NCBI GenBank assembly: GCA_034780895.1
Contig: JAUZTB010000071.1
Span: 18,605,521 to 18,667,331 of the forward strand
DNA length: 61,811 nucleotides
Origin: Rhynchobatus australiae
Lineage: Eukaryota
Direction: 5' to 3'
Below are positions 5,897-56,993 of this stretch, piece after piece. Positions within the stretch are counted from its first letter, which is position 1, and each line of letters starts with the position of its first letter. The notes beneath the pieces are model-generated. The model saw only the letters and a program-made list of their open reading frames with translations. It was not told the DNA's origin and ran no database searches. The position numbers and the translations under genes are program-made.

Positions 5897-6112
5897 AAGG
5901 CAAAATAGTGCAGATACTGGAAATCTGAAATAAAAAAATCTGGAAATACTCAATGGGTCAGGTATTATCTATTAAGAGCTAAACAGCGTTAATGTTTCAA
6001 GCACATGACTTTTCCTTAGAACTCAATCTGAAGCAACCTGCCATATCAATGCTGGTTCTCTCTTCATAGATGCCATCTGACCTGCTGAGTATTTCTAACA
6101 GTGTCTGACTTT
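5897..6112. mobile_element. Old palindromic Penelope-like-element end (degenerate hammerhead-bearing repeat)
   Basis: Left arm gcagatactggaaatctgaaataaaa...tggaaatactcaatgggtcagg, right arm catagatgccatctgacctgctgagtatttcta in inverse orientation. Same family as 24855 and 37633. Confidence 0.7.
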
Positions 6113-8599: not shown

Positions 8600-9445
8600 A
8601 TAAGATTCATTAAGATTATAGTTGATCTTTTGTCTCAATTTCCTTTTCTTGTACTGTACCCATATCCCTTGAATCCTTTAATATCCCAAAAATCAATCAG
8701 TATTTCAAATTAACTCAATGACTGAGCCTCCACAGTCCTTTGGGATAGAGAATTCCAATAATTTGCCACCCAATAATTGAAGGAATTTTCATTTATATAG
8801 CTTATAAGATAAAATATCTTTATTAATCACATGTACATCGAAACACACAGGGAAATACATCTTTGCGTAATGTGTTCTGGGGGCAGCCCACAAGTGTCGC
8901 CACGCTGCCGGCACCAACGTAGCATGCCCACAACTTCCTAATTTGTACACCTTTGGAATGTGGGAGGAAACCAGACCACCCGGAGGAAACCCACGCAGAC
9001 ATGGGGAGAATGCACAAACTCCTGACAGACACGGACCGGAATTGAACCTGGGTAGCTGGCGCTGTAATAGCGTTGCACTAACTGTCACACAACCGTTCCT
9101 GCCTTGTGTATAATTCTGAGATTGTGACACCTGGTTCTAGACTCCTCAGGCAGGGCAAACAACCTCTCTGCATCCAGTCTTTCAAGCCATCTAAGAATCT
9201 TGTGAGTTTCAATGACATCTCTCATTTTTATACTCTGGAGAATGCAGACCAAGTCTACTCAATGACTCCCTAAATGGTATATCTGCCATTCCTGAAACCA
9301 TTCAGGAGAATCTTCACTGCAAACCCTCAAGGACAATGTATCCTTTTTTAGCTGTACTCTGTACTCCAATTGTGATCTTACCAAAGCCCTATAACAGTCA
9401 TAAGACAATTCAAATCCTCTTGTAATAAAGGTCAACATACTATGT
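8600..9445 (-). mobile_element. CR1 LINE 3' fragment split by a V-SINE insertion
   Basis: Minus-strand translation includes HSMLTFITRGFE...YRALVRSQLEYRVQ...VCSEDSPEWFQEW (CR1 ORF2 C-terminal region, frameshifted). The element is continuous across 8808-9103. Confidence 0.8.
8808..9103 (-). mobile_element. tRNA-derived V-SINE, near full length
   Basis: On the minus strand: a tRNA-like head with B-box GGTTCAATTCC, the V-domain TTTGTGCATTCTCCCCATGTCTGCGTGGGTTTCCTCCGGGTGGTCTGGTTTCCTCCCACATTCCAAAG, and the tail GTGTTTCGATGTACATGTGATTAATAAAGATAT. A second copy lies at 52067. Confidence 0.9.
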
Positions 9446-19845: not shown

Positions 19846-19890
19846 ATATTGAGTTGTGTAAGTTTGGAAATAGCTCTCTGTTTTAATACT

Positions 19891-20475
19891 AGAGGAACAA
19901 CTGACTGAAGATGCTGGAACCTAGATGAAATAAACAACAAGATGCTGGAGGAACTCAGCAGGTCAGGCAGCATCCGTGGAGAAAAGCAGANNNNNNNNNN
20001 NNNNNNNNNNNNNNNNNNNNNNNNNNNNNNNNNNNNNNNNNNNNNNNNNNNNNNNNNNNNNNNNNNNNNNNNNNNNNNNNNNNNNNNNNNACAACAAGAT
20101 GCTGGAGGAACTCAGCAGGTCAGGCAGCATCCGTGGAGAAAAGCAGATGGTCAACTTTTCAGGTCAGGACCCTTCTTCAGGACTGACGATAGCAAAAGGG
20201 GAAGCCCAATATATAGGGGGGAGAAACAGAGCAGTGATAGGTGAACAAAAGAGGGGAGACAGAGTGGGTACAAAGTGGTGATAGGTGGATGCAGGTAAGA
20301 GATAGTGATAGGCAGATATGGGGGAGGAGGGCAGAGCAGAACCTGGGGATGGGTCAAAGGTAAGGAGGCAGGCAGCCTGGGGGGAGGGTAGGAGAGGGAA
20401 AGGAGAGAGAACAAAAATGGTGAGGCAAAAAAAGAGAGATAGGCTTGGAAAGGGAAGAAAAGAAGAGGCAAGAGG
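19891..20475 (-). mobile_element. Penelope-like element 3' end / pseudo-LTR with a hammerhead-like motif
   Basis: The minus strand reads a ~290-nt pyrimidine-rich tract, then GTC-CTGAAGA-AGGGTCCTGACCT-GAAA-AGTT-GAC, then the family terminus GATGCTGCCTGACCTGCTGAGTTCCTCCAGC. It is interrupted by a gap with duplicated flanks. Confidence 0.75.
20150..20184 (-). ncRNA. Candidate minimal type I hammerhead ribozyme motif (PLE-associated)
   Basis: CUGANGA box (20180-20174), stem II AGGGUC/GACCU, GAAA box (20160-20157), NUH triplet GUU, and stem I GUC/GAC closing both sides. The stem III palindrome ACGU is altered to AAGU in this copy. Confidence 0.55.
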
Positions 20476-20527
20476 CAACCTTTTCTTTCTGTTTTAAGCT
20501 GCCTTATAATTCAGCAGAGAGAAAAGA

Positions 20528-21603
20528 TACAAAATTGGCTGGATGGTAGGAAACAGAGGGTGATGGTGGGAGGATGTTTCTTAGACTGGAGGTCTGTGAC
20601 TAGTGGTGTGACCCAGGGGTCAGTGCTGGGCCCATTGTAATTTGCCTTCTATATTAACGATTTGGATGAGAATATACAAGGAATAGTTAGTAAGATTGCA
20701 GATGACACTAAAATAGGTGGTGTCATATACAGTGAAAATGTGTATCAAGAATTGCTGTGGGATCTTGATCGGGTGGTTAGGTAAACTGAGGAATGGCAAA
20801 TGAAGTTTAATTCAGATAAGTGTAAAGTGTTACACTTTGGAAGGACAAATCAAGGTAAGACTTTCACATTGAATGGAAAGGCCCTGGGTGATGTTGTTGA
20901 ACAGAAGGACCTTGGAGTAAAGGTGCATAGTTCCCTTAAAATGGAGACAGGTAATAGGGCAGTGAAGAAGGCTTGTGGCATGCTGGCCTTCATCAGTCAG
21001 GGTACTGAATATAGGAGATGGGAGGTTATGTTGCGATTGTACAAATTGGTGGGGCCACACTAGGAGTATTATGTTCAGTTTTGGTCAACCTGTGATAGGA
21101 AGAATGTGATTAGACGGGAAAGAGGGCAAAAAAAGACTTACAAGGATGTTGCCAGGTCTCAAGGGACTGAGTTATAGGGAGAGGTTAGACAGGCTGGGCT
21201 TTTACTCCTTGGAAAGTAGGAGACTGAGGTGTGATTTCATGGAGGTATATAGAATCAAGAGGGGCATAGACAAAGTGAGCAGTCTTTTTTGCAGGGCTGG
21301 GGAATTGAAAACTAGAGGACATAGCTTTAAGGTTAGAGGTAAAAGGTTCAATAAGAACCTGAGGAGCAACTTTTTTACACAGGGGGTAGTAGATATATGG
21401 AACCAGCTGCCAGAGGAAAAGGGTGAGGCAGGTACATAGATACACTTAAGAAGTATATGGACAGGTATTTGGATTGTAAGAGTTTAGAGGGATATGGGCC
21501 AAGTGCTAGGAAATGCAATTAGCTTAAATATACATCTTGGTTACCATGGACAAGTTTGGGCTGAAGGGACTTTATCCATGCTGTACAATTCTATGACTCT
21601 ATG
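20528..21603 (+). mobile_element. 5'-truncated CR1 (HER1-like) LINE with a disrupted reverse transcriptase
   Basis: Translates as NWLDGRKQRVMVGGCFLDWRSVTSGVTQGSVLGPL*FAFYINDLDE...SKIADDTKIGG, then MKFNSDKCKVLHFGR, LSYRERLDRLGFYSLESRRLR and NFFTQGVVDIWNQLP. It has stops and frameshifts, and ends in the tail ctatgactctatg. Confidence 0.95.
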
Positions 21604-23804
21604 CAAGATAAAGAGCAAATGGAAAAATTGTATAAAATATTTCTTGCATATATATTTTTCACAATGGCAGTTAGCATATTATTGCAAGACATTATTTTTA
21701 ATACATGACAGTAAATTATACTTTGTTTAATTTCCACATAGCCATTAACCAAACCATTGCTTGAAATCAAAGTATTTCTTTCATGAATAATTATTTGCAC
21801 ACAACAGGAATAGAAAATCATCAGAGAGAAATGTATTTTCAGTACCTGCATTGAGTGCAAGGTTGTGTGCACCTCAGCACATTCAATTCCATTGACTTCA
21901 ATAACCAAAGATGAGCTTCTCCTCGATACCTTGTAACCAGACTTACCGGAGATCAGTTCCTGTATTTTACTAAGTTATTTATCTCCTCCCTCACACGTTT
22001 TGGGTCACATTGCAGGCTGTGACTAAAAAAAATAAGTGATTTTGTTTTGATTTTCAGCAGTGCTGTGTTCATCTGGGTTCTGGAAGTACTGGAGATAGCT
22101 AAAGGTGATTTTCTTTCTTCCTCTGTTTCTCCCTCAGAGATATTACTTGATATCTTTCCTATTGTTTATTTACTATGGGAACACAGGGACATTTATGAAC
22201 AAAAGTGCCATCCCACTATCCAGTGATTTTGCTTATTCCTTACAAACAAATTCTAATACAACAGCCCTTCACTGCAGCCCTGTATAACAAACACATTATT
22301 GTAACCTTCCATATTAATAGATTTTTTTATTGCATTTCCTCATCTTCTGACTCAGATGTGCAGTTGATTTTAAAAGTATTGTAACAATGAATTCAGGCAA
22401 TTGTAAGTGTGTGTGGGAGCCCAGGAAAATATCACCATAAGATAATCAAATCAATAATTTATAAAATTCCTTCTTTACAGTTCTATCTCTCATTCAGTGA
22501 GATAGTGTTAATGAACAATATTTATGTTTGGCATGCGCATGTCAAGAGTTTGTGTTACCCTACATTGTAATCAGTGCATAATTTCTTATAAAACTCAAGA
22601 TGTTACACATTGTCTTTAATTAGAAGATGGAAGGCAAGTCACAGTTTTGATGTGAATGACAAAGGACAGGTAAGAGCAAACACACAGGAGTTGATGGTAA
22701 CAGTTACCATGTCACGCCTCAGCAATCAAACAAGTGATCTGCAAGAGGCAAGAGCTTTATCAAAGTCTTAAAGTATTGGAGATCCTAACCAAGGGAGACT
22801 GAAAGATTGACAGAAAGGGAACAGTTACCTATGATAAAGATCAAAGGAAGATTGCAGTGTTGCTTAAATGATTAACTGTTTGACTGCTAGTCTGAAAATC
22901 CCTGAGTTTGGATCATTCAGGCTCTTCCAGTCTTACTTTCTTTATTAGTTGTGAAAAATTTAAAAGGAGGNNNNNNNNNNNNNNNNNNNNNNNNNNNNNN
23001 NNNNNNNNNNNNNNNNNNNNNNNNNNNNNNNNNNNNNNNNNNNNNNNNNNNNNNNNNNNNNNNNNNNNNNTATTAGTTGTGAAAAATTTAAAAGGAGGAA
23101 GCAAAATAGATCTGATTTTTGCAGAGATTATGTTACCCTTAGATCACCCTATGCAGCACTGTACAATCTCATGAATTCATTGAATCTGCAATGACATTTG
23201 CACATTTATAACAAAGGCAAAGGAAATTTAATAACTAACAACAGGAAATTACAATTGAAAGAAAGTCAAGATTTGGATACACATTTTAATCTAAGTTAGC
23301 TAATCTTGGGTTGGATAGCAGAGGTATTCAAATGTCAAAGTCAAAATCAGTTCCATAGTTCCTGCAACTACTGGGGCACATTAGATGCTGCAATATGCTT
23401 TGCATCATTGATGGTTGTCAAGCAGAGTGATCTGGTGGCACCCATCTCCTCTCTAGGCAAAACTTACTTGACCTGATATTTTCATTCAAAGACAAATCAG
23501 GCTCAAGGCTGTTTAGTTTCAAAGATCGGATAGGATTGTGCATTTCCATTCTGATGAGAGGAAATCATTTAATTCCTTAATATTTCTGGGTTAATGAAGT
23601 GAAAATTGACCAGAACACCTGCCATGTGTCATTACCAACCAATAGCTCCTGCTGACAGAGGGTGGATATCTGGTGAGGATAGAACTTGTCTTAGGTGTAA
23701 GGTTTCCTGAGGTTGTATGAGCTTCTGAAATTCACTAATAACAATCTTGGCTTACTTTTATACTGCAGATTTATTGCAGTTAGATGTTCAAAGCTGCTTC
23801 AAAG

Positions 23805-24854: not shown

Positions 24855-25124
24855 AAAACAAAAACTTTAGATTCTGGAAATCTGAAATAAAAACAGTCTG
24901 GAAATCTGAAATAAAAACAGAAAATGTTCAAAACACTCAGCAGGTCTGGCAGCATCTGTGGATAGAGAAATGGAATTAGTATTTCAGGTCCAAGACCCTT
25001 TGTGAGTACTGGGCAGTTTTCCTGATTCTGATAAAGGCTCCTGGACCTGAAACATTAAGTCTATTTCTCTATCCACAGATGCTGCCTGACCTGCTGAGTG
25101 TTTCTAATATATTGTGTTTTTATT
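24855..25124. mobile_element. Palindromic Penelope-like-element end with two degenerate hammerhead motifs
   Basis: About 85-bp inverted arms (aacactcagcaggtctggcagcatctgtggatagagaaat / atttctctatccacagatgctgcctgacctgctgagtgtt), plus a 24-bp tandem duplication at 24873-24920. Confidence 0.85.
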
Positions 25125-30830: not shown

Positions 30831-30967
30831 TAAAAGGAGCAGTGCAGATCACACTTTGGCCTGGCTAACATGAGCTAACAAAATTTATCCCAGCTAAAAC
30901 CATCAACTTCAAGATACAACAGGAAAAATAAAGGAAATCTGAATAAAAATTATCAAGAAGTCATTCT

Positions 30968-31725
30968 CAGAATCAGGTTTATTATCACTGATTTAGATGA
31001 TGTGAAGTTTGTTGTTTTCTGGCAGCAGTACAGTGCAAATACATAAAATTACTACAAATTACAAAAATAAATAAATAGTGCAAAGAAAAGGAATAAGGTA
31101 GTGTTCATGGGTTCTTTGACTGTTCAGAAATCCGATGGTAGAGGGGAAGAAGCTGTTCTTGTCAGCGTTGAGCAAGAGCAAGCTCTCAGAGAACCCAAAT
31201 ACAGCACACCGATGCAAGACTGGAGTCAGGATACTTCCTCAGGACAAACACAGGCNNNNNNNNNNNNNNNNNNNNNNNNNNNNNNNNNNNNNNNNNNNNN
31301 NNNNNNNNNNNNNNNNNNNNNNNNNNNNNNNNNNNNNNNNNNNNNNNNNNNNNNNTCAGGTGTGTGTCATTATGCAAACAGTCCAGCATGGAATCCATGT
31401 GCTGGACAACAAGGCATTAAAGGAGCCAAATTGAGGGCCAGAACCATGACAGTTCTTGAATCATTGAGTGTGGGTCTTCAGGCTCCTGTACCTCCTCCCC
31501 GATAGTAGTAACAAGAAGAGGGCATGTCCCAGATGGTGAGAGTGATGGATGCTGCCTTCTTGAGGCACCGCTTCTTGAAGTTGTCCTCGTTGGTGGGGAG
31601 AGTTGTGCCCATGATGGAGCTGGCTGAGTTTACAACTGCCAGCAGCCTCTTGCGATCATGTGCATTGGAGCCTCCATATCAGGCTGTGATGCAACCAGTC
31701 TCCACCATACATCTATAGAAATTTG
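30968..31725 (-). mobile_element. Rex1/Babar LINE 3' fragment, split by a solo LTR
   Basis: Reverse complement of 43380-43856. The tail is agaatcaggtttattatcactga, and the element resumes after 31452 with tcattgagtgtgggtcttcaggctcct...atgatggagctggctgagt. Confidence 0.9.
31160..31451 (-). mobile_element. Solo LTR (Gypsy-like), gapped
   Basis: Termini TGTCA...TGACA (5-bp inverted, TG..CA) and a perfect 5-bp TSD GTTCT at 31155-31159 and 31452-31456. Removing it restores the Rex1 sequence gaagctgttcttgaa. Strand is inferred from resemblance to fish Gypsy LTRs (TGTCATGGTT...TTTGGGTTC...TGACA). Confidence 0.8.
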
Positions 31726-32461
31726 TAAGAGAAATTTCTTTGATGGAATTGAATCGAGCTCCCTAACATACTTACTTCAGTTGCAGTCAACGTCTCACCT
31801 TACTAATAACAAATTTCTCTTCCTTATAAATTATATGTTATGGTTTGTAAATTTTTGCTGATATATTTGGTTTTTAATGGTGATTTTGTACCTATGTACA
31901 AACATCTTGCACAGAGTAGAAGGTTAAGGTGTTTAAGAAATTATTATTCTGCTGCATTTCCAGTGATTTTTTAGGGTTTTACTTGGAGGTGTTACTCCCA
32001 TTGTCAAAAAGAACGATTAACTGTGATTTCTTTCAACTCTTCAGAGGCAGTGCACTTCCATTTCTTTTCTTCAGAGACTCTGTTTATTTTTTAATGGTGG
32101 TAATAAAAATGGCTGAAATTCTGGAATAAAGACAGAATATACCAGAAATTCAGTCATTCCATTGCAGGGTCACATTAGGAATGCTGATTTATCTTCTTTG
32201 CTCAATTGCTCATCAATTCCAAATAAAGCAAACGCTCATGATGAGCCTTTTTAATAGCCCAAGAGTAAGAAAACATTTGGCCCACCATACTTGTGCCTGT
32301 GTCACCTCTATCAAAGTGCTATCCTGCTTTTTATCCTATATCCATCAAAAAAATGTTTAAAGGTATAGAAAAAATTTTCATTTAAAAGTTCCTGTGAATC
32401 TGCTTTGCTTTCAATCAATGGATTAAAATCAAAAATCTTCATACAGTAGAAATTTAAAATG

Positions 32462-32625
32462 GGAAAAAAACAGAAAATGCTGGAAAAACTCGGCAGGTCA
32501 GGCAGCATTTGTGGAGAGAGAAAGAGGCAACATTTTGGATCTGCGACTCTTTGTTAGAGATTGGAAAGAGAGAGAGAATGCAAGTTAATTTTCAGTAGTT
32601 GGGGAAGGGATAAGCAGAACACAGG
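32462..32625 (-). mobile_element. Penelope-like-element end, degenerate
   Basis: aaacagaaaatgctggaaaaactcggcaggtcaggcagcatttgtggagagagaaa followed by a purine-rich tract. Confidence 0.75.
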
Positions 32626-34280: not shown

Positions 34281-36600
34281 GTATACACACAGCATTGCTA
34301 ACAATTACATCAGCACAATAGCCTTTCTATTTATGCATAATAACCAGAACTCCCTTTCATGTCCACATGTGGCACTTTACTATAAAGTTGATGCTTTGCT
34401 TTTATGCTTTTCTTTTAAGTAATGTATCTTGTTAAGTCCTTTGAGTAATTGACAAAAGTTCACTCTTTCAGTGACAAATTGCCAGACTTAGTATTGTTCG
34501 AACTTGTCCTTCCCCATCAGATAATCAGATTGTGATATGACATTACAGAAGATATTAGTATGTGTTAGATTTGCTCACAAAATTGAGCTTATCTCAGTTT
34601 CCATTAACTACTCTCTACAAATATTATACAGTATACAGTATACAGCTACACTAACATTTATTTGTGATTTATACCAGTGAAATGGCTCATTAGCTGCTTG
34701 GGATGATTTAAAGAAGCCTCATTACAAGCACATTGTGATTGCTTTCTATTTTTCATTATTGGTAACAAAATCACATTCTCAGCAATCCCATCTCTATACT
34801 GCATACATTTATGATTTTGCTGAAAGATGGAAAATTACAATGACAAAATGTCTTTTGAAAAGAGAGAAACACTCAGCCCTCTGTAGCTTTATGAAAATGG
34901 CAATAATCATGGAAGATCTTATATTATTACTAACTCAGCAAGAAGCAAAACTGAAGCTCCATTGCAATTTGAATATATTGCCATCAACAGGAATTGCCTG
35001 CAACTTGTTTTATGTTCAGATTGACTCCCTTCAGTGTTGTATCTTCTCACTCATCGTAACATTTCTGAAGATTGGTACGGGCTTTTTCTTTGATGTGCGA
35101 TCTGCCATGGAGAAGGAAGAGACACTGTTGCTGAGTTTTATCCTCTTCTCACCCAGTATCTGCACATGGTCAATCTGCCCACAGTTACAGGTTGTTAACT
35201 CATACTCAAATGAAGGTTAGTGTACAGGACAGGGTGTTAGGGGAGAAAATTGATTGAGGAAAAAAGAGTCAGGAAGTTGGGTGTGAACATAAATAAAAGA
35301 TGTTTCATGAAATGACACATTCCAGATTAAAAAAAATTTGAATTGCACAATCCTTTGAACTCTCTCTCTCTCTGTATATTGGCACCATGTGGGAGATGAA
35401 TTCTGTTGTGCTTTATCCATAGAGAAAACAAAATCAAATCCAGACAATTTTATACATACCGAACAATATCGTGATCATGGTGAAGACAACTTCAGCACAT
35501 CTCCTTTCAGTCTCCTTACACAAATACATTTAAGTGTAAGTGTATTTTAAACTTACACATTGCGATGTTCATTCAGAGAAGAATTTTATGATCAAGGCAT
35601 TTGAAAAGGCAAAGCAGTGGCCAGCTGTGCACTAAGTTCTACAATTTCACAACAACGCATATGGTTTAATAATGAGAAGTTTATGTTACACAAAACTTAG
35701 GTCCTTCCAATCAGGGTTTTAAGCAACACTGGCACAGAAAACAATAAGAAGATATCTAATTTTTATTGTTTTAAAAGAAAAGAAACACAAATGGGAGCAG
35801 TTAGGAATGCTGAACTCTAATTCTCAGAATTCCTGTCCATCTTTGGCCTTTCCTAAATGCATAGATCATTAGAGATTGAACAAATTAATTTAAAAGATTA
35901 TTTAGAACATTGTCATGCATAGGTTTAACATATCTTTCTAGTGGTTGTATTATGGGATTGGACCAAATACCAATTTTATTTCAGGTTGATGTTAAAGTAG
36001 AAAGGAAAATGGGAGGATGGAGGGAGTGGGGATGAGTTGGCTGTGCCCAATCAGTTCTGTCAATTTATTGTTGGTTGGATTAAAGAACATTTACTTCCCA
36101 AAAGTCTCACCACAAGGATGCTGTCTTGAGTCAAGTTCTAATAATGGTATGAAAGTGCCTGTNNNNNNNNNNNNNNNNNNNNNNNNNNNNNNNNNNNNNN
36201 NNNNNNNNNNNNNNNNNNNNNNNNNNNNNNNNNNNNNNNNNNNNNNNNNNNNNNNNNNNNNNNNNNNNNNNNNNNNNNNNNNNNNNNNNNNNNNNNNNNN
36301 NNNNNNNNNNNNNNNNNNNNNNNNNNNNNNNNNNNNNNNNNNNNNNNNNNNNNNNNNNNNNNNNNNNNNNNNNNNNNNNNNNNNNNNNNNNNNNNNNNNN
36401 NNNNNNNNNNNNNNNNNNNNNNNNNNNNNNNNNNNNNNNNNNNNNNNNNNNNNNNNNNNNNNNNNNNNNNNNNNNNNNNNNNNNNNNNNNNNNNNNNNNN
36501 NNNNNNNNNNNNNNNNNNNNNNNNNNNNNNNNNNNNNNNNNNNNNNNNNNNNNNNNNNNNNNNNNNNNNNNNNNNNNNNNNNNNNNNNNNNNNNNNNNNN

Positions 36601-36785
36601 AAAATGCTGGAGGGACTCAGCAGATCAGGCAGCCCCTATAGAGGGGAATAAACAATTGACATGTCAGGTCAAGACCCTTCATCAGGACTGGAAAGGAAGA
36701 GGACAGAAGCCAGAATAAGAAGGTCGGGGAAGGGGGAGGAGCACATGCAGGCAGGTGACAGGTGAGTTCAGGTGATGGGGGAGAG
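36601..36785 (-). mobile_element. Penelope-like-element end with a hammerhead relic
   Basis: Minus strand CAGTC-CTGATGA-AGGGTCTTGACCT-GACA-TGTC-AATTG, with the family terminus running into the gap. Confidence 0.75.
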
Positions 36786-37632
36786 TTGCCAGTAACAGAG
36801 AAATATTAGGTGTGAACTTTATGTTATGAAACCAAGACAGTTGAAGGTGAATGGAGGAGGATTTATTTACGTGAGTGGATATGTAAAATAGTTGAATCTG
36901 TGAACTAAAATGAGTTGGACGAATTTTATATTTCTCCAGAAATTTATTTCTACTAAAGCTAAAATATATCACAATGAGTTTTGCTTAATAGGTTTATAAA
37001 CAAGATATCCCTCTCCACTAAGATCACCAATGGGAATGGCCTGAGATGCTGGACTAATAATTTTCCCAGTCATATGTTTTCACACAATATTGGCCAAAAA
37101 TAACTGATGCTTCCAGATTCCAAAACCTAAAGTAATTTAAGGGCTAGGGGGCCTGAAAGGTTTCTAGTCCATTGGCAGCTCCGATCAAGGAACCAGACCC
37201 CATTGGTATAGAATTTCCTATTCATGTATCTTGAATTTAGTCACTGAAGTGATTTAATCTATTGGACCAGAATTGGCTGGGAAATTCCAGAAATTCCACA
37301 GAACTACCAGCACTTCTCAGTGTGAGAACCATCAAATACAAGCTTCCTATGTTAATGCTGAAGTCCCAGATATGCTAGCTGCCCTTCATAAATAATTTTC
37401 ACTGATTGCATTCAGACATTGGAATCCAAATGGAGTCAGGTGGTGCAGTCTGAACTTGCAGCAAGTTTGACTTGGCTCAGGAACAGTGAGTCACCTCATT
37501 TCAGCGAAGAGCAATGTCAATGAGGGACCAGGGTAAGTATCAGATAATTAATGTTCTTTTGAATTAAGTTTTAAGTAAACTAAATTTTTAACAAAATTTG
37601 TAACAGTTCTACTTACATTTAATAATCTTAGA

Positions 37633-37877
37633 TGAAAAACACGATGATGCTGGAGGAACTCAGCAGGCTAGGCACCATCCGTGGAGAAAAGCAGGTGGTC
37701 AACATTTGGGGCCAGGACCCTTCCTCAGGACCCGAAACTTCTTCAGGTCCCGAAGAAGGGTAATGAACTGAAACGTTGATCACCTGCTTTTCCCTACGGA
37801 TGCTGCCTGGCCTGCTGAGTTCCTCCAGCATCATCGTGTTTTTCATCTGGATTCCAGCATCTGCAGTCCTTTATTTC
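37633..37877. mobile_element. Young palindromic Penelope-like-element end with a 15-bp TSD
   Basis: About 100-bp inverted arms (tgaaaaacacgatgatgctggaggaactcagcagg / cctgctgagttcctccagcatcatcgtgtttttca). The direct repeat TTTAATAATCTTAGA occurs at 37618-37632 and 37878-37892. Confidence 0.9.
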
Positions 37878-38399
37878 TTTAATAATCTTAGAATGCATTT
37901 GAATACGACTGAATGCTACATTTGACAGCTGGCTAAGCAGGGGTGTGGCTTTGCTGTTTTATTAGCTACTTTGTGGGTAGACCTTGTACTACACCCATCC
38001 TACCTCCACCCCCATTCCTGCACAACAGCATTGTGTCATGCAAAATCCTGTTGCTGCGCTGAGCCTTGCTCTGCAGGTTTGGTACAGCTTCAGGGATCAA
38101 GTTCACAATGGTAAATCTGGAAGTGGTAACATCATATTTATTACAGAGCTTGGTGATAAGTACTGGGGGCTTGCTGCTGGAAGCAAGTTCTACCTTGATG
38201 TATCTCACTTTGCAGTGTTGGAAATCTAAAATTTTCTGCTGCTGCTGTATCAAGACAGCAATAATGAATAGGTCTGAAGGAAATGGGAGGAAAATAAACA
38301 AGACTTAGCTGAGGTTTTATAACCCTGCAGGATAACCAATGGAATGGTGTGGAGGGGAATAAAAAAATGTTTTTTTAATCTTATATGCTATGACCAAGG

Positions 38400-42771: not shown

Positions 42772-43856
42772 TGATTACAGCTTGGCATTCAACACCATCC
42801 CGTCAGTACTAATCAACAACTTCAAAACCTGGGCCTCAGTACCTCCCTCTGCAACTGGATCCTCGACTTCCTTATTGGGAGACCACAGGCAGTGCGGATC
42901 AGTAATAACATCTCCTCCTCGCTGACAATCAACACAGGCGCACGTCAAGGATGCATGCTTAGTCCACGGCTCTATTCTCTCTACACTCATGACTGCATGG
43001 CTAGGCACAGCTCAAACACCATCTGTAAATTCGCCAATGAAACCACTGTTGTTGGTCGAATCTCAGATGGTGACAAGGAAGCATACAGGAGTGAGATAGA
43101 TTGGCTGGTTGAGTGGTGTTGCAAAAACAATCTCACTCTCAACATCAGCAAGACAGAGGAATTGATAGTGAACTTCAGGAAGGGGAAGTTGGGAAACCAC
43201 ACACCAGTCCTCATTGAGGAGTCAGTGGTGGAAAGGTTGAGCAGCTTCAAGTTCCTGGGTGCCAACATCTCAAAGGATCTATCCTGGGCCCAACACATTG
43301 ATGCAATCACAAAGAAGGCATGCCAACGGCTTTACTTCATTAGGAGTTTGAGGTGATTTGGTATATCACCAAAGACACTTGCAAATTTCTACAGATATAC
43401 GGTGGAAAGCATTCTGACTGGTTGTATCATTGCCTGGTATGGATGCTCCAATATGCAGGATCAAAGGAGGCTGCAAAGGGTTGTAGACTCAGCCAGCTCC
43501 ATCACGGGCACATCCCCCCACCATCAAGGACNNNNNNNCAAGGACATCTTCAAGAGGCGGCGCCTCAAGAACGCGGCATCCATCATTAAGGACCCTCACC
43601 ATTCGGGACCAGTCCTCTTCTCTACTACCATCAGGGGCCTGAAGACCCACACTCAATGTTTCAGGGACAGCTTCTTCCCCTCTGCCATCAGATTTCTGAA
43701 TGGTCCATGAACCTATGAACACTACTCCATTATTCCTCTTTTGCACTATTTATTTATTTTTGAAACTTATGGTACTTTTTATGTCTTGCACTGTACTGCT
43801 GCTGCAAAACAACAAATTTCACGACACATGTCAGTAATAATAAATCTGATTCTGAA
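42772..43856 (+). mobile_element. 5'-truncated Rex1/Babar LINE with a defective reverse transcriptase
   Basis: [10 protein letters not shown]; [20 protein letters not shown]; [11 protein letters not shown] (the FADD catalytic motif is mutated); [15 protein letters not shown]; FKFLG; premature stop at 43354-43356; ESILTGCIIAWYG; FRDSFFPSAIRFLN; tail aataaatctgattctga. Confidence 0.95.
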
Positions 43857-43950
43857 ACAGAAAATTATGGAAACACTCAGCAGGTCAAGTAGCACCTGTA
43901 GAGAGAGAAATAGAAGTAATATTTCAAATCAGTGACATTTCATCACAACA
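43856..43950 (-). mobile_element. Penelope-like-element end, remainder of the copy split by Rex1 (other part at about 42735-42771)
   Basis: aaatactgtggatgttgcaaattagaaatagaacac before the LINE continues as aacagaaaattatggaaacactcagcaggtcaagtagc after it. Confidence 0.7.
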
Positions 43951-44385
43951 GATTTAAAAGCTGAGATGACAGCCATTCACTAAATAAAACTGTAACACTC
44001 AATAATTGTTAGAATCTCTGTTTAATCTCCTGAAGATTACAGTGGGATTTCCTGATGTTTCAAGAAATGTTCTTGTGCATTTTGAGAATATATTTTAGAA
44101 ATTATTTCTTCAAATTTTTTAAAGAAACTATTTTACAGATGATATTAATAGAAAACAGGTACAAACTCTGGAAACCAAAGATTTTCACATCTCATACTAA
44201 ATTCTAATGTTCTGAAAAATAATCTTATTTTATTTAGCTCAGAACTTGAAGAAATGAGATTATATTGCCATAGAATGATTTTAGCTCAGGACAAGATTAC
44301 AAAATTGGTTGAATTTCCAGATTAAATCAGCTGTCTTTTCATACTCAAAATCTATAATTGCTGCTTGAATTTTTATAAAGCAAAT

Positions 44386-44939: not shown

Positions 44940-45698
44940 CTAATCCAGACAAGTGTGAGGTATCGGACTTGGGAGGTCAAATGTAAGAGGAAAGTATACA
45001 TGGCAGGGCCTCAGAAACATTGATGTAGAGAGGGATCTTGGAGTTCAAGTCCATAGCTTCCTGAAAGTAGCAACACAAGTGGATAGAGTGGTAAAGAGGG
45101 CACGTGACATCCTTGCCTTCATCAGTCGGGGCACTGAGTATAAAAGTTGGGAAGTCATGTTGCAGCTGCATAAAACTTTGTTTAGGCCACATTTGGAGGA
45201 TTGTGTACAGTTCCAGTCACATCACAGGAAAGCTATGGAGAGGGTGCAGAAGAGGTTCACTAGGAATTGGCCGGATTAGAGAGCACCCGCTCTGAGGAGA
45301 GACTGGACAAACTTGGTTTGTTTCTTCTGGGGTGCTGGAGGCTGAGGGGTGGCCTGATAGAGGTATATAAAATTATGAGGGACATAGATAGGGTAGATAG
45401 TCAGAGACATTTTTCCCAAGGTAGAATTATCAAATACTAGAGGGCATAGATTCAAGGTGAGAAAGGGAATGTTTAAAGGAGAGTTACAAGGCAAGTTTTT
45501 TGCACAGAGACTGGTGGGTCACCAGAACAGTTGCCATGGGAGGTAGTAGAAGCAGATATGTTAGCAATGTTTGAGAGGCATCTAGGCAGGCACATGAACA
45601 GCATTGGGAAGGGAGGGATATGGACTATGTACAGGCAGATAGGATTAATTTATATTGGCATCATGGCCCTGTTCCTGTGCTGTACTGTTCTGTGTTCT
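44940..45698 (+). mobile_element. 5'-truncated CR1 LINE
   Basis: VDRVVKRARDILAFISRGTEYKSWEVMLQLHKTLFRPHLEDCVQF...MERVQKRFTR, with the tail cctgttcctgtgctgtactgttctgtgttctgt. Confidence 0.93.
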
Positions 45699-52066: not shown

Positions 52067-52347
52067 AAAGATATCTTTATTAGTCACATGTACATCGAAA
52101 CACACAGTGAAATGTATCTTTTGCATAGAATGTTCAGTGGGCAGCCCGCAAGTGTCACCACACTTCCGGCACCAACACAGCATGCCCANNNNNCAACTTC
52201 CTAACCCATACATCTTTGGAATGTGGGAGGAAACCGGAGCACCTGGAGGAAACCCACACAGGCACGGGGAGAACATACAAACTCCTTACAGACAGTGACT
52301 GGAAATAAACCCAGGTCACTGGCACTGTAAGAGCATCACGCTAACCA
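52067..52347 (-). mobile_element. tRNA-derived V-SINE, near full length
   Basis: Colinear with 8808-9103; V-domain ctttggaatgtgggaggaaaccggagcacctggaggaaacccac and tail aagatatctttattagtcacatgtacatcgaaacac. Confidence 0.9.
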
Positions 52348-54844: not shown

Positions 54845-55071
54845 CGTGAGAGGGATAATTTTAAGGTGATTGAAGGAAGATATAAGGGGGATGTCAGAGG
54901 TAAGTTTTTTTACACAGAGAGTGGTGGGTGCATGGAACGCACTGCCTGCGGAGGTTGTGGAGGCAGATACATTAGGAACATTTAAGAGACTCTGAGATAG
55001 ACACATGAGTGATAGAGAAATGGGGGGCTATGTGGGAGGGAAGGGTTAGATAGATCTTAGAGCAGGATAAA
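54845..55071 (+). mobile_element. CR1 LINE 3' fragment
   Basis: ttttttacacagagagtggtgggtgcatggaacgcactgcctgcggaggttgtggaggcagatac translates as FFTQRVVGAWNALP; runs into the gap. Confidence 0.92.
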
Positions 55072-55751
55072 NNNNNNNNNNNNNNNNNNNNNNNNNNNNN
55101 NNNNNNNNNNNNNNNNNNNNNNNNNNNNNNNNNNNNNNNNNNNNNNNNNNNNNNNNNNNNNNNNNNNNNNNNNNNNNNNNNNNNNNNNNNNNNNNNNNNN
55201 NNNNNNNNNNNNNNNNNNNNNNNNNNNNNNNNNNNNNNNNNNNNNNNNNNNNNNNNNNNNNNNNNNNNNNNNNNNNNNNNNNNNNNNNNNNNNNNNNNNN
55301 NNNNNNNNNNNNNNNNNNNNNNNNNNNNNNNNNNNNNNNNNNNNNNNNNNNNNNNNNNNNNNNNNNNNNNNNNNNNNNNNNNNNNNNNNNNNNNNNNNNN
55401 NNNNNNNNNNNNNNNNNNNNNNNNNNNNNNNNNNNNNNNNNNNNNNNNNNNNNNNNNNNNNNNNNNNNNNNNNNNNNNNNNNNNNNNNNNNNNNNNNNNN
55501 NNNNNNNNNNNNNNNNNNNNNNNNNNNNNNNNNNNNNNNNNNNNNNNNNNNNNNNNNNNNNNNNNNNNNNNNNNNNNNNNNNNNNNNNNNNNNNNNNNNN
55601 NNNNNNNNNNNNNNNNNNNNNNNNNNNNNNNNNNNNNNNNNNNNNNNNNNNNNNNNNNNNNNNNNNNNNNNNNNNNNNNGGCCTTACCATTCCAGCACTT
55701 GAAACTCTGAACCAGAAATTTCAGAAGACTGGAGCCAACTTTGAGTGATTG

Positions 55752-56120
55752 AACACAGAACATAGAACAGTACAGCATAGGAATAGGCCCTTCTGCCCAT
55801 GTTGTTGTATTGAACAAATTAAACTAGAAATTAAGCACCTAACTAAACTAATCCTTTCTGTCCATAATCCTCCATTCTCTGCATATTCATGTGCCTATCT
55901 AAGAGCCTCTTAAATGCCTCTATCTTATTGGCCTCCACTACCACCCCTGGCATTCCAGGTACCCACCACTCTCTGTGTAAAGAACTTGCCCTGCATATCT
56001 CTTTTGAACTTCCTCCCTTTCACCTTAAATGCATGTCCTCTAGTATTAGACATTTTGATCCTGAGGAAAAGACACCAGCTCTCTACTTTATCTATGCTTC
56101 TCATAATCTTATAAATTCTA
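55752..56120 (-). mobile_element. CR1 LINE 3' end
   Basis: acagaacatagaacagtacagcataggaataggcccttctgccc ... acccaccactctctgtgtaaagaacttgcc ... ttaaatgcatgtcctctagtattagac. Confidence 0.92.
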
Positions 56121-56993
56121 CCAAGTTTCCTGCCCCCCCCCCTAAATTTAACATGTGTTATTAAACTATTTTAAATTAATACATTTTGTAACTTCTGGAA
56201 ATACCAGACTGTTTCAACAAACATCGTTTTAATTCTATTTTGAGTTTTATCACATTATCACAATAAAATTGGACACACCATACAACTGCTGTGACATTAT
56301 TCCTATCATAACTTTGGATGTGCCCAGGAGTCCTTAGGCAGAACTCCATTTTGCTGAGATTCTCTGGCTTTTCTGCTGAGAAATCACCTCTCAGATCCTG
56401 TCCCAAATTAGCCCTGGCACAATATCTAAGACCCAATTAATTTTATAGGGGATTATGGCACTGTAGAGAAGCCACAGTAAGGACCAAAAGGGAAGGTATC
56501 CCCTTCTTTTTAAATGATTTTGCTTCAGTTTAGATTTCTTTTCTCATTANNNNNNNNNNNNNNNNNNNNNNNNNNNNNNNNNNNNNNNNNNNNNNNNNNN
56601 NNNNNNNNNNNNNNNNNNNNNNNNNNNNNNNNNNNNNNNNNNNNNNNNNNNNNNNNNNNNNNNNNNNNNNNNNNNNNNNNNNNNNNNNNNNNNNNNNNNN
56701 NNNNNNNNNNNNNNNNNNNNNNNNNNNNNNNNNNNNNNNNNNNNNNNNNNNNNNNNNNNNNNNNNNNNNNNNNNNNNNNNNNNNNNNNNNNNNNNNNNNN
56801 NNNNNNNNNNNNNNNNNNNNNNNNNNNNNNNNNNNNNNNNNNNNNNNNNNNNNNNNNNNNNNNNNNNNNNNNNNNNNNNNNNNNNNNNNNNNNNNNNNNN
56901 NNNNNNNNNNNNNNNNNNNNNNNNNNNNNNNNNNNNNNNNNNNNNNNNNNNNNNNNNNNNNNNNNNNNNNNNNNNNNNNNNNNNNNNNNNNNA

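Follow-up and report, generated by a model that had tools for sequence, protein, structure and literature searches.

Why should a short repeat, scattered through the AT-rich DNA of a ray-like fish, carry the boxes of a hammerhead ribozyme? Could its copies be the ends of a retroelement, and might any of them still cut? We addressed these questions in a window of 61,811 nucleotides from Rhynchobatus australiae (contig JAUZTB010000071.1, positions 18,605,521 to 18,667,331), the whole stretch of DNA analysed here, an AT-rich scaffold with 56,278 called bases and 5,533 N in 35 gaps. Minimal hammerhead ribozymes (min-HHRs) in the pseudo-LTRs (pLTRs) of metazoan Penelope-like retroelements (PLEs) were described in 2014 by Cervera and De la Pena (PMC4209133). 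With considerable confidence we regard the present repeats as minimal type I hammerheads that are likely 5'-truncated pLTR end pieces of an endonuclease-bearing PLE and are probably inactive.

A repeat family with a minimal hammerhead consensus

A profile built from the copies and run on the window finds ten copies and one tail fragment at E<=2.4e-14; its next-best match has E=0.06, and the reversed window yields none below E=4. The ten copies form seven insertion units, of which three are inverted pairs and the other four consist of one copy each. They include all nine copies of the preliminary description, whose coordinates hold to within a few bases, and a tenth at 6027-6110 (+), lacking stem II and absent from that list. 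When the hammerhead columns alone were used in a leave-one-out search, eight of the nine listed copies were recovered at E<=0.015, the copy at 43917 reaching only E=0.25. The shared unit measures ~100 bp and consists of a hammerhead-like stretch of 35 nt followed by a better conserved 3' module. Beside a gap, 31223-31246 (-) weakly resembles the motif's 5' half (E about 0.8) and is possibly an eleventh copy.

The motif was sought with the min-HHR descriptor of PMC4209133 (Fig. S7: stem I, CUGANGA, stem II, GAAANNUH, stem I). It matches one of the ten copies exactly, at 20153-20180 (-), and three when at most one core mismatch is allowed (20153, 37701 and 5991). Twenty dinucleotide shuffles of the window gave no exact match and a mean of 0.1 relaxed matches; Rfam covariance models reported no hammerhead among their 13 window matches at E<=5. 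All nine copies that possess the extra base after A9 have A there, and the 10.1-11.1 pair reads G-C in two window copies, G-U in five and A-U in two.

Is the hammerhead, then, a property of the family as a whole? Reads and contigs of four public runs, three of them deep, were aligned to 20091-20520. Among the differences listed for these runs (40 of 167), C accounts for 69-76% of family reads or depth at position 15.2 in the three deep runs, and the letter next in frequency there is U (16-25%), the product of CpG decay. At position 11.1, by the same listing, the deep runs have C in 57-82%. From loose ends we recovered a second large subfamily, GAAA-CG-UC followed by GACUG, which is supported by 3,671 RNA reads and by 1,294 and 1,091 contigs. 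The consensus of the preliminary description is matched by the public reads at 15.2 and 11.1 and in this GACUG type, and its assignment to the minimal type I hammerheads holds at the level of the family, by descriptor and reads alike. The palindromic ACGU that it described is the majority state in public reads, but occurs in only one of the ten window copies, at 37746, where it is retained while the first box and stem II are broken. The repeat consensus is a textbook minimal hammerhead; the window copies, nine of ten of which fail the exact descriptor, are decayed.

Pairing within the motif is register-specific, with 84% of cells paired against 18-46% when the register is slid. The covariation once read into stem I is not above shuffles in the window: its two-sided change (C-G in three copies, U-A in four) amounts to about one event, a switch that divides a GC-richer from an AT-richer subfamily, and the stem covariation score, from an alignment of only 11 rows, is reached by 79 of 500 shuffles. 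The further contrast of GUC/GAC with GGUC/GACC is a longer helix and not covariation. For a hairpin in the 3' module, too, covariation was not above shuffles (153/500).

The insertion at 20150

The sole exact match lies within an insertion on the minus strand, composed as follows.

19874..19886, target-site duplication, 3'-side copy, 13 bp with one mismatch
19887..20484 (-), 5'-truncated insertion with pyrimidine-rich leader, hammerhead motif, conserved 3' module and tail
19887..19922 (-), 36-nt 3' tail, alignable to the tail of the 37746 copy
19934..20147, 57-bp exact overlap flanking a 100-N gap, likely an artefact of assembly
20150..20183 (-), minimal type I hammerhead motif, the only exact descriptor match in the window
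20181-20183 with 20150-20152 (-), stem I
20174-20180 (-), CUGAAGA box, with the extra A at 20173
20169-20172 with 20161-20164 (-), stem II
20157-20160 (-), GAAA box; positions 15.2/16.2 are A and G
20153-20155 (-), GUU triplet, with the predicted cleavage site between 20153 and 20152
20185..20484 (-), pyrimidine-rich repeat sequence 5' of the motif, at repeat depth, likely pLTR or 3' untranslated part
20485..20497, target-site duplication, 5'-side copy, 13 bp with one mismatch

After subtraction of the 100-N gap and the 57-bp overlap the insertion measures about 440 bp. Because 19934-19990 is identical to 20091-20147 across the gap, the interval is most likely one copy, and the second tail is probably a gap overlap. 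Exact overlaps flank four of the 35 gaps in the window (19991, 22971, 34178 and 46275, with 57, 28, 48 and 15 bp); the one of 48 bp sits in a microsatellite, and together they suggest false duplications in the assembly. A duplication of 13 bp was reached by only 3 of 600 random window pairs, and public DNA depth is down to 11 from 20481 on, at the same boundary as the duplication. Two long open frames in 20185..20484 match no Pfam family.

How much of a ribozyme is left here? Both catalytic boxes, CUGAAGA and GAAA, are kept, as first described, but the copy is not intact: it has AAGU in place of ACGU and a G-U pair at 10.1-11.1, and its A15.2 and U11.1 are minority states of the family. The boxes have thus survived while the dimer palindrome is gone. 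In the monomer the computed probability of the hammerhead stems is 0.0005, and another fold dominates. The locus is probably a dead, truncated copy, although on the hammerhead model its GUU site could be cleavable in trans by an intact partner.

Inverted pairs, tails and abundance

The remaining six units comprise three inverted pairs and three single copies.

5905..6112, head-to-head inverted pair, more diverged; arms 5929-6024 (-) and 6027-6110 (+), the latter without stem II
24872..25122, head-to-head inverted pair of the AT-richer subfamily; arms 24915-25012 (-) and 25023-25119 (+)
32462..32575 (-), decayed single copy with mutations in both boxes
36600..36830 (-), single copy with pyrimidine-rich leader; CUGAUGA intact, GACA in place of GAAA
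37618..37632, 15-bp exact target-site duplication, left
37633..37877, head-to-head inverted pair; arms 37638-37733 (-) and 37744-37848 (+)
37878..37892, 15-bp exact target-site duplication, right
43850..43955 (-), decayed single copy; GUGAUGA in place of CUGAUGA, with a LINE-like fragment adjoining its 3' end

Inverted pairs thus account for three of the seven units, and in all three the tail is confined to one arm. The pair at 37633-37877 carries a 29-nt tail (37849-37877) on its right arm only; its left arm has CAAA in place of GAAA, and its right arm has CCGAAGA and a broken stem II together with ACGU. Both cores of the pair at 24872..25122 are mutated, and a partial, duplicated tail is present on the left arm only, as is the tail of the pair at 5905..6112. 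Target-site duplications were found at two of the six units tested, both AT-rich, and the 15-bp length at the 37-kb pair was reached by 3 of 600 random pairs. The other four tested units gave none, including the pairs at 24872..25122 (none above background) and 5905..6112 (none detectable); the unit at 36651, whose 5' boundary is approximate, was left out, as a gap has swallowed its 3' end.

Each of the three pairs folds into a long hairpin (-179, -129 and -54 kcal/mol); the first value belongs to the pair at 37633..37877, which forms a single hairpin with a z of -22. In such hairpins the motif would be buried. Head-to-tail tandems of the unit, or two intact motifs on one strand, were not found in the window. 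The window copies are probably inactive, because nine of ten do not fit the exact descriptor, the one that does is without the palindrome, with a stem probability of 0.0005, and the inverted pairs fold on each other with no head-to-tail tandem in the window. None of the three inversion junctions (5929-6110, 24915-25119 and 37638-37840) coincides with the predicted cut site; all fall about 8 nt or less from the 5' strand of stem I. At the centre of one pair, 37720-37754, extra scrambled pieces of the motif form an 18-bp near-tandem, which suggests that the template was switched several times at the hammerhead's 5' edge.

How abundant is the family? Ten copies in 56,278 called bases correspond to one per 5.6 kb, or about 1.8 x 10^5 copies per Gb if the window is typical. 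In two public runs 53,116 and 52,965 contigs align to 20091-20520, and the summed depth of the motif exceeds that of unique flank about 1.4-1.9 x 10^5-fold, a ratio that is not a copy number. Window density and the contig counts of these two runs roughly bear out the large genome-wide load proposed earlier. A raw RNA run, picked by species label, has 12,906 of its 11,053,536 records aligning to 20091-20520. The two read directions are balanced (50:50) over the motif and stand at 60:40 in the 3' module and at 75:25 upstream, the strandedness of the library being unrecorded. Read ends do not pile up at the predicted cut in this one RNA run, a weak test with a fragmented library. The RNA reads of the family are explained by passive read-through. 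T>C differences on 20091-20520 occur at 26 of 137 places in RNA and 7 of 77 in DNA. The excess in RNA falls short of significance (p about 0.07, from a total that contains a small miscount), but RNA editing would find natural substrates in inverted pairs.

Origin of the family and comparison with known systems

Which element left these ends? Inverted pairs, a one-sided tail and target-site duplications match described PLE insertions, for which the available text of PMC8557442 and PMC3846280 reports head-to-head inverted truncated copies, a 30-40-nt tail at one end and a target-site duplication. Since no frame with reverse transcriptase (RT) plus GIY-YIG is linked to the repeats, we infer the Penelope origin from insertion anatomy, and on this basis hold it with high confidence; the preliminary assignment to PLE ends therefore stands on anatomy and lacks its coding partner. 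Pfam searches of all 161 gap-free frames of at least 62 aa contained no Penelope frame, though shorter or broken fragments would escape, and the only matches were RVT_1 with ALKBH8_N at 42775-43353 and a kinesin below cut-off. Protein searches with the repeat frames gave no Penelope link, returning one sawfish match and two unrelated ones. Pattern scans for the tail and the hammerhead motif returned no locus in collections of genome, viral and metagenome contigs, which contain no animal genomes and so carry no weight here. The lack of a Penelope ORF in the window is what truncated copies would lead one to expect.

The proposed mechanism begins with a source element in which two motifs of one tandem transcript would pair through the ACGU palindrome. 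Only when so paired would the motifs cut after GUC or GUU (position 17), probably aided by the protein of the element. For a new copy, the RT/GIY-YIG protein would nick AT-rich DNA and start reverse transcription at either of two sites some 30 nt apart, which would make the tail optional. An early stop would leave a 5'-truncated copy, and an inverted second copy would often be added.

Could the short unit be an element in its own right? A retrozyme- or SINE-like family, a short RNA copied by Penelope enzymes and not a truncated full-length element, is unlikely in our judgement, and it overlaps with the explanation preferred here, as Penelope origin is common to both. Its appeal lies in the very high copy number, in the closeness of the three inverted junctions to the motif's 5' edge (about 8 nt at most), and in the pLTR-related retrozymes that the available text of bioRxiv 10.64898/2026.07.22.740005 reports from vertebrates, one of them chondrichthyan. 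That same text requires tandem units, of which the window has none; moreover, two copies reach 140-300 nt upstream, public DNA depth declines broadly in the 5' direction, as it would under variable truncation, and there is no tRNA head. No tRNA gene was detected in the window and no Rfam match over any copy, though a strongly decayed head could escape; a tRNA- or 5S-derived SINE was rejected, no head derived from a Pol III RNA having been found. A broader extension of this idea strikes us as very unlikely: sharks and rays would harbour hammerhead-headed Penelope end-modules in numbers of some 10^5 or above, which together yield ~1 in 1,000 RNA reads and whose enzyme and substrate halves, borne by different host transcripts, would meet and cut in trans or across introns as a transcriptome-wide RNA-cutting layer, the short unit being its own non-autonomous retroelement that starts at the 5' edge of the ribozyme.

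Two further readings dispense with a Penelope end or with its decay. If the repeat were a LINE 3' end or an inverted element of MITE type, the hammerhead-like letters would be incidental; LINE-like fragments do adjoin two copies (20520 on; 42775-43840), inverted pairs with a duplication resemble MITEs, and the Penelope frame is unlinked. This is highly improbable, for the unit at 20150 is enclosed by a duplication of its own, on the strand opposite to its LINE-like neighbour, a duplication is also seen at single copies, the inverted arms are unequal, and the family majority fits the descriptor as well as features outside it. Scarcely credible is the idea that the 20150 copy is an active ribozyme cutting its host transcript, even with both boxes and the GUU site intact and with the family's 12,906 RNA records indicating that partners exist in the cell. 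AAGU is unable to self-pair, no intact neighbour lies within the 62 kb, a different fold dominates and RNA read ends do not pile up; in PMC4209133 minimal motifs did not cleave as single units and cleaved little as dimers, and only one of nine frog dimers was active, the other eight remaining uncleaved, in the available text of bioRxiv 10.64898/2026.07.22.740005. A truncated PLE end remains our preferred reading.

Other repeats share the window. LINE-like fragments lie at 42775-43840 (+) and 30967-31729; the former, which we take to be Rex1/Babar-like, adjoins the 3' module of the 43917 copy, and its RT fragment (42775-43353) is of LINE type. Related decayed fragments at 20520-21440, 44960-45640 and 54860-56170, presumably CR1-like, have no Pfam match above cut-off. 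A second short family, possibly a SINE, is represented by 8811-9082 and 52068-52345 (81% identical over 278 bp), and a 5S rRNA-like Rfam match at 23461-23565 (-), with 34 bits under a gathering score of 38, is possibly a pseudogene or SINE head.

For annotation, such repeats should be labelled Penelope-derived ends; they also leak into gene models. The sawfish (Pristis) match is a TRPV3-like isoform model that begins with an antisense translation of the repeat (residues 31-70; 78% identity over 40 residues, the query being an open frame across one repeat pair); from sequence, this start may be either an exonisation or a gene-model error. Words of the 20150 copy occur in nine organisms, and together with the sawfish match this makes a ray-like cartilaginous fish a likely source. 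A family of such high copy number also offers deep natural variation for testing what selection on the motif favours. Our literature search found no paper on this elasmobranch family, which may already be catalogued in Repbase or Dfam, databases outside its scope.

How does the family compare with known systems? With the endonuclease-positive PLEs in the available text of PMC8557442 (Fig. 2) and PMC3846280 it shares 5' truncation, an inverted copy, a 30-40-nt tail at one end and a duplication. Unlike them, it has neither an ORF nor a direct partial tandem in the window, and its duplications measure 13 and 15 bp, as opposed to 8-10 bp in the rotifer. The anole Poseidon element PAc (PMC11167929) likewise has a tail, an AT-rich target and a hammerhead near the 3' end of the insertion, and neither there nor here do RNA-seq read ends pile up at the cut site. 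The PAc ORF begins in stem II, whereas no window copy has a long frame starting there; cleavage of PAc is protein-assisted, and is dispensable for insertion in vitro (PMC11167929). Short non-coding units with a pLTR-related type I hammerhead also recall the non-LTR retrozymes of bioRxiv 10.64898/2026.07.22.740005, which in its available text are tandem units with complete motifs, an arrangement absent from the window.

The closest likeness is to the min-HHRs of PMC4209133. Shared with these are the type I layout, CUGANGA with one extra base (there a named feature of the min-HHR, after A9), G10.1-C11.1, a short stem I, GAAA-N-N-U-H, the palindromic 15.2/16.2, and mostly single dispersed copies with near opposite-strand pairs; a difference lies in stem II of the present family, which is short, with 4-5 bp. 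The massive genome-wide spread of single motifs and their close pairs on opposite strands were already reported in that study, whose motifs (Fig. S3 and Table S1) do not include cartilaginous fish. With 10 copies in 56 kb, most of them decayed, the present density points to numbers of relics well above its 4,000-9,000 matches in coelacanth and frog, which counted intact motifs only. The association of dimer-type minimal hammerheads with Penelope-like elements is thus already known; the present family extends it to a ray-like fish and to a very high copy number.
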